Assembly: GCF_001677475.2 (NCBI RefSeq)
Contig: NZ_CP015229.1
Reading direction: 5' to 3' (one strand)
DNA: 64,000 bases
Source: Escherichia coli
Lineage (GTDB): Bacteria; Pseudomonadota; Gammaproteobacteria; Enterobacterales; Enterobacteriaceae
Part shown: positions 7,458 to 63,136 of the stretch, piece after piece
Layout of the letters: each line of letters begins with the position of its first letter
Numbering within the stretch: position 1 is the stretch's first letter
Program-made: the position numbers and the translations under genes
The notes under the pieces: model-generated
The model's input: only the letters and a program-made list of their open reading frames with translations
The model's database searches: none
Told to the model about the DNA's origin: nothing

Positions 7458-7620
7458 AGAAAAAAGAGGGTAGCAGCGTTAACTGCTACCCTCGAAGATT
7501 GTTACCCAGCGTATTGCGGTTTTCAGGCCCGATGGGGAACGACCATCAGGCGTATAGTCTGTCCGTGCTACGTAACAATCGAGAGGGCTGGAATTTCCGC
7601 CCCTGGTTCTTGTAATTAGT
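7458..7620 (-). ncRNA. sroC: SroC sRNA (processed from the gltI-gltJ spacer; GcvB sponge)
   Basis: It occupies the gltI-gltJ intergenic region. On the minus strand it ends at the hairpin gagggtagcag..ctgctaccctc (7467-7493) followed by a U-run. Placement uses remembered K-12 offsets, which also reproduce the gltI stop position. Confidence 0.55.
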
Positions 7621-16007: not shown

Positions 16008-16082
16008 TGGCTGGGGTACGAGGATTCGAACCTCGGAATGCCGGAATCAGAATCCGGTGCCTTACCGCTTGGCGATACCCCA
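16008..16082 (-). tRNA. glnX: tRNA-Gln (anticodon CUG)
   Basis: Reverse complement reads TGGGGTATCGCCAAGCGGTAAGGCACCGGATTCTGATTCCGG...CCAGCCA. 75 nt with encoded CCA. Confidence 0.97.
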
Positions 16083-16119
16083 ACTGGGTGCACTTACGAT
16101 GTAAGCGTCTTGAATAAAT

Positions 16120-16194
16120 TGGCTGGGGTACGAGGATTCGAACCTCGGAATGCCGGAATCAGAATCCGGTGCCTTACCGCTTGGCGATACCCCA
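16120..16194 (-). tRNA. glnV: tRNA-Gln (anticodon CUG)
   Basis: Identical 75-nt copy of the CUG isoacceptor. Confidence 0.97.
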
Positions 16195-16242
16195 ACAAAT
16201 TGGTTTGTGAATTTGCCGAACTTATTCGACACATTCAGAATT

Positions 16243-16319
16243 TGGTGGCTACGACGGGATTCGAACCTGTGACCCCATCATTATGAGTGATGTGCTCTAA
16301 CCAACTGAGCTACGTAGCC
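16243..16319 (-). tRNA. metU: tRNA-Met elongator (anticodon CAU)
   Basis: Reverse complement reads GGCTACGTAGCTCAGTTGGTTAGAGCACATCACTCATAATGATGGGG...CCACCA. 77 nt. Confidence 0.97.
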
Positions 16320-16334
16320 AGATTGTTTCTTCGA

Positions 16335-16409
16335 TGGCTGGGGTACCTGGATTCGAACCAGGGAATGCCGGTATCAAAAACCGGTGCCTTACCGCTTGGC
16401 GATACCCCA
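16335..16409 (-). tRNA. glnW: tRNA-Gln (anticodon UUG)
   Basis: 75 nt. Anticodon loop reads ccggtttttgataccgg on the minus strand. Confidence 0.97.
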
Positions 16410-16443
16410 ATAACCGGGCGGTGAACCGCTTACTCGAAGAAGA

Positions 16444-16518
16444 TGGCTGGGGTACCTGGATTCGAACCAGGGAATGCCGGTATCAAAAACCGGTGCCTTA
16501 CCGCTTGGCGATACCCCA
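16444..16518 (-). tRNA. glnU: tRNA-Gln (anticodon UUG)
   Basis: Second 75-nt UUG copy. Confidence 0.97.
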
Positions 16519-16541
16519 TCCGTACAACGCTTTCTGGTGAA

Positions 16542-16626
16542 TGGTGCGGGAGGCGAGACTTGAACTCGCACACCTTGCGGCGCCAGAACCTAAATCTGGT
16601 GCGTCTACCAATTTCGCCACTCCCGC
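16542..16626 (-). tRNA. leuW: tRNA-Leu (anticodon UAG), long variable arm
   Basis: Reverse complement reads GCGGGAGTGGCGAAATTGGTAGACGCACCAGATTTAGGTTCTGG...CCGCACCA. 85 nt. Confidence 0.97.
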
Positions 16627-16634
16627 AAAAAAGA

Positions 16635-16711
16635 TGGTGGCTACGACGGGATTCGAACCTGTGACCCCATCATTATGAGTGATGTGCTCTAACCAACTGA
16701 GCTACGTAGCC
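16635..16711 (-). tRNA. metT: tRNA-Met elongator (anticodon CAU)
   Basis: 77-nt copy identical to metU. Confidence 0.97.
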
Positions 16712-53170: not shown

Positions 53171-53208
53171 AAAAAGCCGGGTGAAATTAAATCTTCCCGG
53201 CTTTTTTA
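53171..53208. terminator. Cassette hairpin H1 (bidirectional terminator shared by rhsI and the symE-like gene)
   Basis: aaaaaGCCGGGtgaaattaaatcttCCCGGCtttttt. Confidence 0.75.
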
Positions 53209-53212
53209 TTAT

Positions 53213-53542
53213 TTAACTCTCGTTCAGCACACTAAACATCCCGTTCCGCATCCCCTTAACCACCTGTTTAACCTGATAAAGTTCTTCCCGCAGCTCCTGC
53301 ACCTCGTCACTGTCAGCGATGATGGTCAGGTACCCCTCCGAAATCTTCACCGTGACACCCCGCCCGGTATCAAATCCCGCCTCAGCCAGCCAGTCGCCCT
53401 TGAGGTGCAGGCTGGGATGTTGTGAATAATACCGGGCTATACCTGTTGTGCGGTCCTGGTGGCGGGTTCTGACATAGCCGACTTTATAGCGGCGCTGGGT
53501 TTTGGAAATGGTGACTTCTGGCGTAATATCGTGTTCAGCCAT
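53213..53542 (-). CDS. SymE-family (AbrB/SpoVT-fold, type I toxin-like) protein, intact copy
   Basis: 109 aa. The segment HLKGDWLAEAGFDTGRGVTVKISEGYLTII aligns with remembered K-12 SymE [32 protein letters not shown]. An SD aggag lies 7 nt before the ATG. Confidence 0.75.
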   Translation of the reverse strand: MAEHDITPEVTISKTQRRYKVGYVRTRHQDRTTGIARYYSQHPSLHLKGDWLAEAGFDTGRGVTVKISEGYLTIIADSDEVQELREELYQVKQVVKGMRNGMFSVLNES

Positions 53543-57793: not shown

Positions 57794-57831
57794 AAAAGCC
57801 GGGACGGTTATTAAATCTTCCCGGCTTTTTT
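57794..57831. terminator. Cassette hairpin H2
   Basis: aaaaGCCGGGacggttattaaatcttCCCGGCtttttt. Confidence 0.75.
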
Positions 57832-60413: not shown

Positions 60414-60447
60414 AAAAAGCCGGGAATATAATCTTCCCGGCTTTTTT
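60414..60447. terminator. Cassette hairpin H3
   Basis: aaaaaGCCGGGaatataatcttCCCGGCtttttt. Confidence 0.75.
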
Positions 60448-60704: not shown

Positions 60705-62518
60705 GCCAGACGTACCGTTACAACGCGCTGAACGCGGTCACGGAAGTGGTGTTCACCGGGGACCGGGGCGGTGAAATCCGCCACCGGCTGGCACGTGATG
60801 CGGCGGGCCGGCTCACGGCAAAGGAGACAGCCGATAGCCGAACGGAATACGTCCATGATGCGGCAGACCAGCTACTGGAAATCCGCCGCCGACGGTCGGA
60901 TGCCGGGGAAATGGACGCACCGGAGATTATCCGTTTCAGTTACGACAGACTGGGGCGGATGCTGACTGAGGAGACGGCGCAGGGCGTCCTGACCCATCAG
61001 TACGATGAACTCAGCAACCGGACAGCCACCACCTTTCCGGACGGCAGAACGCAGCGTCATCTGTACTACGGCAGCGGCCATCTCCAGCAGATAAATCTGG
61101 ACCGGGAGGTCATCAGCGAGTTCACACGTGACGCCCTGCACCGGGAAGTGCTCAGAAGTCAGGGGCGACTGAGCACGCGGCAGCTTTATGACCCCGCCGG
61201 GCGGCTGAAGCGCAGGGAGACATACAGCGGGATGCGCGGGGTGGTACCGGAGACGTTCACGGACCGGCAGTACAGCTACAGCGGCGAGGATGAACTGCTG
61301 AAGACGCGGCACAGCCGGCGGGGGGAAACGGATTACTTCTACGACCCCACGGGGCGCATCACGGCGTGCCGCTCGGAGGATGAGGGGTATCTGGCGAGCT
61401 GGCAGTACGACGCGGCGGGAAACCTGCTGGGGAGGCGCGCGGGGGAAAGGGCCACGGCAGAAAACAGCGTGGTGCCGTTCAACCGGCTGATGTCTTACCG
61501 TGGTGTGCACTACCGTTATGACGAATTTGGCCGGACGGTGGAAAAGGAGGGCCGGAGCGGCACGCAGAGTTACCGTTATGATGCGGAACACCGGATGGTG
61601 GAAGTGACGACAGCGCGGGGGACATACCGGTATGTGTACGATGCGCTGGGGAGGCGGACGGAAAAACAGCACATCAGCCCTGACGGTAAAGCGTACAACC
61701 GGACGACATTTTTATGGGACGGAATGCGGCTGGCGCAGGAGAGCAGGCCGGAGGGAATAAGTAGCCTGTATATCTACAGCGACCCGGGGAGTTATGAACC
61801 GCTGGCGCGGGTGGATAAGGCGGGCAAAGAGGGCCCGAACCGGATACTGTATTTTCACACGGATGTGAACGGTGCGCCGGAAGAGATGACGGACAGTGAC
61901 GGGAAAATCGTGTGGGAGACGGGGTATCAGGTCTGGGGTAACACGATACAGGAGAAGGACCACGGCGGGGTGGAGCAGAACCTGCGCTACCAGGGACAGT
62001 ACCTCGACAGGGAAACGGGGCTGCACTACAATCTGCACAGGTACTATGATCCGGATGTCGGGCGGTTCATGGTAACGGACCCGATAGGGCTGAGAGGCGG
62101 ATTAAACTTATACCAATACGCGCCTAATCCGTTAAGCTGGATCGATCCTCTTGGATTAAGTGCCGCCTCTGATTTACCTCAATTAAAAGGAAGATCCCCA
62201 GGGGCAATAGGTTCTATTCTTACTGATAATGGATTCAATTTAGATAAACAAACAAGTACCGGGAATCAGACTTGGAGCCACGCCGATGGTTCTAAAGTTC
62301 GTGTCGATCCCTATGGAAACCAAAGTATGACTATGAAAAACGGTGATCCATTACCGAAATCAGGAGCTAACGCACATGTGCATAAATATGATCCCGGTGA
62401 GATACCGCTGAATGACAGAGGCATTCCGAGTACAAATCCAAATGAAACACATATAGGGATCAGGAATCCAAATGATTATTCTACAAAACGAGGGCGGGCC
62501 CATGGGTGCGGCGTATAA
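60705..62518 (+). CDS. Orphan Rhs fragment 3: 1.39-kb core 3' segment (direct repeat copy B, 60705-62092) plus a distinct CT toxin
   Basis: The translation is near-identical to main Rhs residues from QTYRYNALNAVTEVVFT to VTDPIGL. It then diverges: [22 protein letters not shown] followed by a 119-aa CT from 62159. The 5' side (60678-60704) is a scrambled YD fragment in another frame. The only start is an internal GTG at 60746. Confidence 0.85.
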
Positions 62519-62530
62519 GGTAAGAAATTA

Positions 62531-62815
62531 ATGAGTGTTGAATATGTTATACATGTCGATGATAAAGTAGATAATTTACTTTCTTTTATTGTCGAGAGAA
62601 TAAAGGAAAATCAACCATCCTCTCGAATTAATACTGACGGTTCACTTTGGATTCCATCTAGCTATTCAAATTGGATTGATTTTTCAATAGAAGACCATGA
62701 GGATGGTTTTTTTATTGTAAATAATTTAAATGGAAGTGATAGAGATAAATTATTTTCACTGATATTTACTGCCTTTCATGAATTATCTATAAAATATGAA
62801 ATAGAAGAAGTCTAA
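62531..62815 (+). CDS. Orphan immunity protein 3
   Basis: 94 aa. It begins 12 nt after the toxin-3 stop with an SD aagg. Confidence 0.7.
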   Translation: MSVEYVIHVDDKVDNLLSFIVERIKENQPSSRINTDGSLWIPSSYSNWIDFSIEDHEDGFFIVNNLNGSDRDKLFSLIFTAFHELSIKYEIEEV

Positions 62816-62817
62816 TG

Positions 62818-62897
62818 AAAGCCGGGTTTTTGGACTGACCCCATAAAGTTGGACACCCAACTGATTAAGGTGCAGTCCAACATATTCCCGGCTTTTT
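62818..62897. terminator. Cassette hairpin H4, with its loop expanded by a 49-bp insertion
   Basis: aaaGCCGGGtttt[49 bp]acatattCCCGGCttttt. Confidence 0.6.
62831..62879. mobile_element. Miniature IS150-group/IS1397-like element (49 bp)
   Basis: TGGACTGACCCCATAAAGTTGGACACCCAACTGATTAAGGTGCAGTCCA has termini TGGACTG / CAGTCCA. It aligns with the first roughly 50 nt of the IS at 1044-1094 (TGAACTGCACCCCAAATGTTGGACA...GAAGGTGCAGTT). Confidence 0.6.
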
Positions 62898-62902
62898 ATT
62901 AT

Positions 62903-63136
62903 TTAACTCTCGTTCAGTACACTAAATATCCCGTCACGCATACCCTTAACCACCTGTTTAACCTGATAAAGTTCCCTGCGCAGTTCCTGTACTTCGTTGT
63001 TATCTGCAAGCAGGATCTGGCAGCCTTCCGAGATCTTCACGGTAACGCCCGTGCCGATCTCAAATCCCGCTTCTCTCAGCCATTTTGCGCTGATTTTGAT
63101 TACCGGCGTGTCGCTGCGGTTGGGCAGATAACCCAC
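62903..63136 (-). CDS. SymE-family ORF, copy 4, lacking a canonical start upstream of the conserved N-terminal segment
   Basis: 77 aa, differing from copy 2 at 4 residues. The upstream conserved but start-less segment is the same as in copy 2. Confidence 0.5.
   Translation of the reverse strand: MGYLPNRSDTPVIKISAKWLREAGFEIGTGVTVKISEGCQILLADNNEVQELRRELYQVKQVVKGMRDGIFSVLNES

Follow-up and report, generated by a model that had tools for sequence, protein, structure and literature searches.

A 49-bp chimeric unit from the ends of an ISKpn1-like insertion sequence in a terminator hairpin of Escherichia coli, a probable relic of collapse in place

Transposition of IS3-family elements runs through a double-stranded circle, and ISs are known to sequester their ribosome-binding site in read-through transcripts. 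Nearly precise excision of Tn10 reportedly leaves at the donor site a palindromic remnant of ~50 bp that consists of the two extremities of the element. In a secondary account, remnants of this kind are credited to Ross 1979 and Foster 1981 (cited in bioRxiv 10.1101/2023.06.07.543989), and the same preprint models the excision of copy-out-paste-in ISs as strand switching at microhomologies of 2–4 bp. IS1397 and ISKpn1 have been shown to be specific for palindromic units (PMC1525189, PMC3184786). The only Enterobacteriaceae MITEs in ISfinder are MITEKpn1, MITESen1 and MITEEc1 (PMC13367494).

Here we analyze a 64,000-nt stretch of DNA from E. coli (contig NZ_CP015229.1; hereinafter, the window), in which a 49-bp sequence, TGGACTGACCCCATAAAGTTGGACACCCAACTGATTAAGGTGCAGTCCA, occurs once, at 62831–62879 (0 matches expected by chance), within the loop of a hairpin. 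A search of the literature for this sequence, or for MITEs associated with the IS3 family or IS1397, yielded no description of the unit. The window also contains the sroC sRNA (7458–7620, − strand) and a cluster of seven tRNA genes (16011–16711, − strand), which are usual for E. coli and show that the stretch is chromosomal.

The cassette locus and its terminator hairpins

Between positions 53173 and 63180, the window carries four tandem modules, each consisting of an Rhs toxin tip, a small ORF, a terminator hairpin and a converging symE gene. The 9-nt arms of the hairpins, AAAGCCGGG and CCCGGCTTT, are identical in all four (window scan; 0 expected by chance), and behind each hairpin comes the same symE 3' end, in converging orientation. 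Three of the hairpins have loops of 11–16 nt, and in the fourth the 49 bp are inserted between the same arms (Table 1), just as the original prediction described it. The homology between the modules begins at the left arm of the hairpin, which indicates that the hairpin and symE behave as a shuffled unit; in other strains, a different immunity gene is linked to the module that bears the insert. In the window, this module is preceded by an orphan Rhs C-terminal toxin fragment (60746–62518), in which Rhs domains were found by Pfam search, and by a 94-aa ORF that is presumed to be the immunity gene and has no match in Pfam. The first hairpin-symE module, and only this one, lies next to a member of the Hfq-binding sRNA family isrA (Rfam, 107.5 bits; 53343–53471, + strand); at the other three symE modules, no isrA match was found at the Rfam gathering score.

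Located between the immunity ORF and symE, the segment 62818–62900 combines a 9-bp GC-rich stem with UUUUU, and is predicted to be a Rho-independent-type terminator serving the convergent genes. A simple terminator scan misses this hairpin, the loop being longer than 8 nt. With the insert included, 62812–62905 folds into one coaxial hairpin (−40.8 kcal/mol, z −7.3).

Table 1. Features of the locus (window positions) and insertion sites of full-length relatives of the parent IS
Feature	Position	Strand	Description
IS1397 copy in REP stem-loop	1044..2475	+	99% identity with copies that RefSeq annotates as 'IS3-like element IS1397 family transposase'; left TTAT, right TTAT
Sister hairpin without insert	53173..53204	+	14-nt loop; −16.6 kcal/mol
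Sister hairpin without insert	57795..57828	+	16-nt loop; −20.4 kcal/mol
Sister hairpin without insert	60416..60444	+	11-nt loop; −19.0 kcal/mol
94-aa ORF 5' of the hairpin, presumed immunity gene of orphan Rhs toxin	62531..62815	+	ORF list
Left arm of terminator hairpin, AAAGCCGGG	62818..62826	+	Perfect complement of 62887–62895; arm common to three other cassette hairpins
Old loop remnant left of the insert, TTTT	62827..62830	+	No repeat of the right remnant, hence no visible target duplication
25-nt segment TGGACTGACCCCATAAAGTTGGACA	62831..62855	+	Right inverted repeat, read inward, of ISKpn1-like IS; 25/25 to reverse complement of right ends of L034, L035, L036
Leader segment CCCAACTGATTAA	62856..62868	+	Positions 26–38 of parent IS left end; part of 21/21 match to L034:1226–1246
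GGTGCAGT	62869..62876	+	Inverted copy of the tip inside the left end of the parent (positions 39–46); pairs with the tip in folds
CCA	62877..62879	+	Completes full IS tip GGTGCAGTCCA; TTT here in ISKpn1-like parents
Old loop remnant right of the insert, ACATATT	62880..62886	+	TCATATG in four E. coli genomes with the unit
Right arm CCCGGCTTT (62887–62895), then T-run TTTTT	62887..62900	+	Pairing and fold
symE toxin gene, converging on the hairpin	62903..63136	−	Pfam SymE_toxin, E 8.8e-10; RefSeq annotation of homologues
Full-length IS, L034			Left flank with duplication gcccggCAT; right CATaccgggcttttttt; duplication CAT
Full-length IS, L035			Left agcctcagacTAA; right TAAttctgaggcttttttt; duplication TAA
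Full-length IS, L036			Left agcccgtaTTT; right TTTagcgggcttttt; duplication TTT
ISEcB1			Left ccgccgagCATG; right CATGtcggcgg; duplication CATG

Make-up of the unit and its ISKpn1-like parent

In a BLAST search of 5,426 complete E. coli genomes, several elements of the IS3 family match positions 1–46 of the unit with their left ends, and the matches run from the terminal TG of the IS to just before the start codon of orfA. The closest E. coli copy, in strain SFE8, is an internally deleted remnant. Intact 1447-bp relatives that are 95% identical to the SFE8 remnant and about 74% identical to ISKpn1, and that encode an HTH orfA and an rve (DDE) orfB, were identified on plasmids of Pantoea ananatis, Citrobacter braakii and Rahnella sikkimica. 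The 1447-bp element has TGGACTGCACCCCAAAAGTTGGACA-CCCAACTGATTAAGGTGCAGT-TTTTTATG at its left end and, read inward, TGGACTGACCCCATAAAGTTGGACA-GTTCATG at its right end.

The unit combines these two ends. Its positions 1–25 are an exact copy of the right inverted repeat and are two indels apart from the left repeat of the same elements (L034, L035 and L036), and its positions 26–46 are identical (21/21) to the left-end leader, the internal copy of the tip included. Only the two extremities of one 1447-bp IS remain, in the correct outward orientation, and the terminal inverted repeats of the unit match the ends of an autonomous IS along the whole right repeat on one side and an 11-nt tip on the opposite side. 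Both ends of the unit have TG...CA tips with 7 complementary bases (10 with one bulged base) and retain the AGTTGG motif at a nearly equal distance from the tip. The 49 bp hold no transposase gene, and the 1.1 kb that separate them from the right edge of the window show no transposase similarity. Judged from these sequence matches, the unit is an IS-derived, non-coding chimera of a right repeat and a left leader. The original prediction depicted it as a segment bounded by the left inverted repeat and an internal pseudo-right end; the derivation from IS ends and the inverted tip stand, but the supposed left repeat is the right repeat of the parent.

We attach next to no weight to an origin of the 49 bp unrelated to ISs, be it as original loop sequence, as a palindrome formed by chance, or as a regulatory RNA dedicated to symE or the immunity gene. 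The good fold of the unit (z −4.7 as DNA) and its location in the 3' region of two genes would be compatible with such an origin, but the exact identity to IS ends contradicts it, only four of the E. coli genomes with related hairpins have the unit, the three sister hairpins lack it, and a search of the whole window detected no Rfam family at the gathering score at this site.

Scarcely more credible is the derivation of the unit from the IS1397 copy of this genome or its family, which the original prediction had favored. An IS1397 copy is indeed present in the window, within a TTAT duplication (1040–1043 and 2476–2479), and, as had been claimed, its left end contains an internal inverted copy of the terminus. 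The alignment of the unit with this end (1044–1094) exists, but includes only 39 matches in 55 columns, compared to the exact 25/25 and 21/21 matches to the ISKpn1-like element. Furthermore, the end sequence of IS1397 is TGAACTGCACCCCAAATGTTGGACA... and its tips are TGA...TCA, as opposed to TGG...CCA in the unit, and the tips co-vary strictly with the lineage (all 24 aligned sequences have either TGG..CCA or TGA..TCA; a pair of them, of the latter type, are left ends of full ISs). An origin from IS1397 would call for a variant with TGGACTG tips and the CCCAACTGATTAAGG leader. By this comparison, IS1397 is a relative of the parent of the unit, not the parent itself. The orfB of the window copy has a premature TAG (...KLMQ*; 1721–1849 / 1868–2443), and this copy is probably non-functional.

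In both the ISKpn1-like IS and IS1397, the first ~50 nt form a hairpin in which the tip ACTGCACC pairs with GGTGCAGT, the latter overlapping the orfA ribosome-binding site AAGGTG. The predicted folding energies are −26.5 kcal/mol for the ISKpn1-like IS and −23.9 kcal/mol for IS1397 (z −5.6), with z about −5.5 overall. The internal repeat of ISKpn1-like parents, ISEcB1 and IS1397 reads GGTGCAGTTT.., without the terminal CA, and the unit has GGTGCAGTCCA; thus, contrary to the notion of a pre-existing miniature element of the IS1397 type, the unit was not a ready-made transposable unit of any of these elements. A different arrangement is found in an IS3-family lineage of Erwinia and Pantoea, in which a complete internal tip, GGTGCAGTTCA, abuts the GTG start of orfA (L060:1601–1660, L061:1601–1660, L013, L026, L046), so that the first 49 bp of that IS already amount to a double-tipped unit. 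A right end of the ISKpn1-like IS that stands alone, TGGACTGACCCCATAAAGCTGGACAGTTCATG, without an IS body, adjoins an nleG effector gene on the E. coli plasmid pMFDS1001074 (L007:2501–2545).

The full-length relatives of the parent sit in stem-loops followed by T-runs, either terminators or REPs, and are flanked by 3–4-bp duplications (Table 1). The preference of the IS1397/ISKpn1/ISEcB1 clade for hairpin loops is real and extends beyond REP/BIME to ordinary terminators. This agrees with the original prediction in that both insertions in the window occupy hairpin loops, IS1397 that of a REP and the 49-bp unit that of a terminator, and that hairpins such as those of the cassettes are additional targets.

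Related mini-elements and the inheritance of the unit

The right-junction pattern CAACTGANTAAGGNGCAGTYCA was used to scan species-representative genomes and metagenomes. It matched 22 loci in the former and 19 in the latter, one per genome, in a scan that required an exact 20-nt right half and that diverged copies within a genome would escape. Five matches (L010, L017, L023, L042, L045) were removed as chance matches, six (L024, L025, L029, L043, L055, L059) because, on the opposite strand, they are left ends of full ISs, and five (L013, L026, L046, L060, L061) as left ends of the Erwinia/Pantoea IS, in which the internal repeat ends in TCA and is followed by orfA. After this filtering, the search for further copies that had been suggested at the outset leaves about 21 other distinct sites with minis of 45–54 bp, many of them in hairpin loops and some with duplications, so that comparable remnants are present, singly, in terminator hairpins of many further Gammaproteobacteria. 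The hosts include Yersinia, Lelliottia, Limnobaculum, E. ruysiae, Scandinavium, Rahnella, Pseudenterobacter, Xenorhabdus, Serratia, Cellvibrio and a soil proteobacterium, among others. On plasmids, the mini search detected only left ends of full ISs, and in viral contigs the right-junction pattern had no match.

Most of the minis consist of IS positions 1–46 followed by YCA, their left end being the left repeat of the parent, and several are exactly positions 1–46 plus CCA. In the window copy and in one soil lineage, the left end is the right repeat. No derived character was found, other than the YCA tip, that would be common to the minis and absent from full ISs. Perfect flanking stems of at least 6 bp were present in 8/18 first-pass matches, compared to 7% of random positions, and the reconstructed empty sites fold at or below the 5th percentile of random positions in 9 of the 27 listed sites; both lists still held entries that were later removed, including left ends of full ISs. 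Exact duplications of 3–4 bp (TTG, GTT, TAAT, TAAT) flank four or five of the about 21 mini sites.

The mini of E. ruysiae (L012:513–561) is located at the loop position of the phoH terminator, as seen from comparison with the phoH-pgaD region of E. coli K-12 (L062). Other DNA takes the place of the right arm of the terminator and of the pgaD side beyond it, and the mini thus coincides with a synteny breakpoint, which suggests a rearrangement caused by a full-length predecessor IS.

The complete 49-mer was found in 4/5,426 E. coli genomes, always in the order immunity gene, hairpin with the mini, symE. Within E. coli genomes, no mini with TGA tips or with the alternative make-up was detected. 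The scans, which needed an exact 20-nt match, found no second copy of the unit in any genome, of E. coli or otherwise, and no sign of amplification. The window copy and that of the four genomes are identical at 46/49 positions, and the adjacent arm and symE at 242/261 positions, with unrelated upstream gene and DNA. Given that the unit has diverged about as much as its flank, within the same symE module, the insert is old and travels with this module. The loop remnants differ at 2/7 positions between the two alleles and thus decay fast, which bears on the target duplication. Such a duplication is absent both from the window copy (TTTT before and ACATATT after the unit) and from the four E. coli genomes (TTTT and TCATATG). 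The E. coli genomes yielded neither a full-length IS at this hairpin site nor, with the reconstructed empty site as the query, an exact allele of the loop without insert; related empty hairpins are common, with 1,271 places in 828 E. coli genomes matching the reconstructed empty hairpin and symE end. The unit is a real and old insert and, as we infer, probably immobile; against movement as a unit of its own, it is single in each genome, belongs in E. coli to one inherited module and has no target duplication.

It is conceivable, albeit doubtful, that the 49-bp unit was mobilized in trans by a transposase of the ISKpn1/IS1397 type and inserted in the loop as such. The complementary TG...CA tips and the AGTTGG motifs kept at both ends would suit such a process, and so would the dispersal of minis of the same 48–49-bp length over about 21 sites in many genera, the exact duplications at some of these sites, the enrichment in hairpin loops that the minis share with their parents, and the pre-existence of a 49-bp unit at the left end of the Erwinia/Pantoea IS. 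However, relics of full-length insertions should show the duplications and the hairpin context just as well. Moreover, there is one copy per genome everywhere and no within-genome family, and the window copy lacks a duplication and has diverged along with its flank. In addition, the duplex circle of the IS3-family pathway would be only ~52 bp long in this case, far below the limit for duplex DNA, so that the 49 bp presumably could not form one.

Proposed collapse in place and comparison with known systems

The reading that we favor, with a probability of roughly 60%, is that the unit is a relic of a full-length ISKpn1-like IS that collapsed in situ, in a nearly precise excision, at its own fold-back repeats. 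We propose that such an IS inserted in the loop of the terminator hairpin shared by the Rhs immunity gene and symE, and then lost its interior in place, with the right inverted repeat, the 21-nt left leader and a complete tip being retained. The collapse would have proceeded by strand switching at short repeats of the element itself, the left-end fold-back that covers the orfA ribosome-binding site being the likely point, during an event of the nearly precise excision type or an abortive copy-out. The relic would since have been inherited passively with the hairpin-symE module, the lengthened terminator stem being its only likely effect.

For the minis with the left repeat, positions 1–46 plus CCA would result from a single slip that joins the internal GGTGCAGT to ...TCAGTCCA, the right tip. 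These minis, the majority, fit one slip at the 4-nt CAGT, or at the 7-nt CAGTTCA where the internal tip is complete. The window copy, with the right repeat at its left end, needs two switches between inverted repeats, at an 11-nt core common to both repeats and at the 8-nt tip copy: copying inward along the right repeat, a strand would pass at the core, AAAGTTGGACA, into the left leader, and then at GGTGCAGT onto the left tip, so that the original flanks would enclose the right repeat, followed by the leader and the tip. Another possible route leads through an IS with swapped ends, followed by deletion between 8-nt direct repeats; the end-swapped intermediate was not observed. A single deletion, autointegration into the leader loop, circle-junction products, and a second insertion into a mini were each considered for the window copy and rejected because they yield the wrong order of segments.

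Strand switching at the left-end hairpin does occur, as follows from two copies of the IS at the same chromosomal site. In E. coli SFE8 (L002:1501–1550), the left end is the normal CCAAAAGTTGGACA, whereas in a relative from a metagenome (L043:6826–6900) it is TTAATCAGTTGGATA, an inverted copy of the element's own leader that makes a perfected palindrome. The difference looks like a quasi-palindrome template-switch mutation in which part of the transposase-binding repeat would have been lost.

Collapse in place is favored over mobilization of the unit because of the single copy per genome, the co-divergence with the flank, the restriction of the plasmid matches to left ends of full ISs, the lack of a derived character common to the minis apart from the YCA tip, the limit on duplex circles, and the rearrangement in E. 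ruysiae. Several observations speak against it. Neither a full-length IS nor an exact empty allele was found at the site in E. coli genomes; a simple in-situ deletion should keep the target duplication, and the window copy and most other minis are without one; the chimeric make-up cannot be reached from the known parent by one deletion between direct repeats; and the 49-bp architecture is found repeatedly, in two tip lineages and with either make-up, which could point to a transposase-driven process.

Two bolder generalizations can be envisaged, both of which we consider quite unlikely. The fold-back leader of the IS1397/ISKpn1 clade might be a built-in collapse point at which full-length copies in hairpin loops recurrently and independently turn into the same 49-bp double-tip hairpin via strand switching in abortive copy-out or replication, leaving a family of footprints across Gammaproteobacteria, or else the unit might be the smallest transposase-mobilized element known, moving as a DNA hairpin without a circle.

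Under the collapse reading, the unit would offer a natural example of a copy-out-paste-in IS that erases itself at its own regulatory fold-back, and a sequence footprint by which the past activity of a hairpin-targeting IS clade can be traced. The effect at the locus is small, namely the lengthening of the stem between the Rhs immunity gene and symE, from about −19 to about −41 kcal/mol. Termination is probably retained because the base stem and the U-run are intact, and no function of the unit beyond the lengthening of the stem is indicated. For genome annotation, the 49 bp should be regarded as neither a gene nor a novel RNA.

With respect to known systems, the unit has the same end sequences as the ISKpn1/IS1397 clade, and by sitting in a hairpin loop it conforms to the published specificity of both elements for palindromic units and to the full-length copies of Table 1. 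It differs from these elements in that they are about 1.43–1.45 kb long and encode a transposase, whereas the unit has 49 bp and no transposase genes, as well as in its host structure, an ordinary Rho-independent-type terminator rather than a REP/BIME target, and in the lack of a target duplication. Like the scars left by excision of Tn10 and those of the IEE model, it retains both extremities of the element, with the junction at short repeats inside the ends. Unlike them, it has an IS3-family parent rather than IS10 of the IS4 family, its repeat is the fold-back of the element's own leader, its chimeric structure cannot be accounted for by a single slip between direct repeats, and its excision is a proposed one. 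The unit further resembles bacterial MITEs (MITEEc1/ERIC, MITEKpn1, MITESen1, Correia, RUP), which are also short, non-coding, intergenic and hairpin-forming, with inverted repeats derived from ISs, but it is much shorter and single-copy; the Enterobacteriaceae MITEs of ISfinder are unrelated to it, among them MITEKpn1 (109 bp), which was compared in sequence. Altogether, the unit belongs with kinds of sequences that are already known, namely IS remnants and MITE-like elements.
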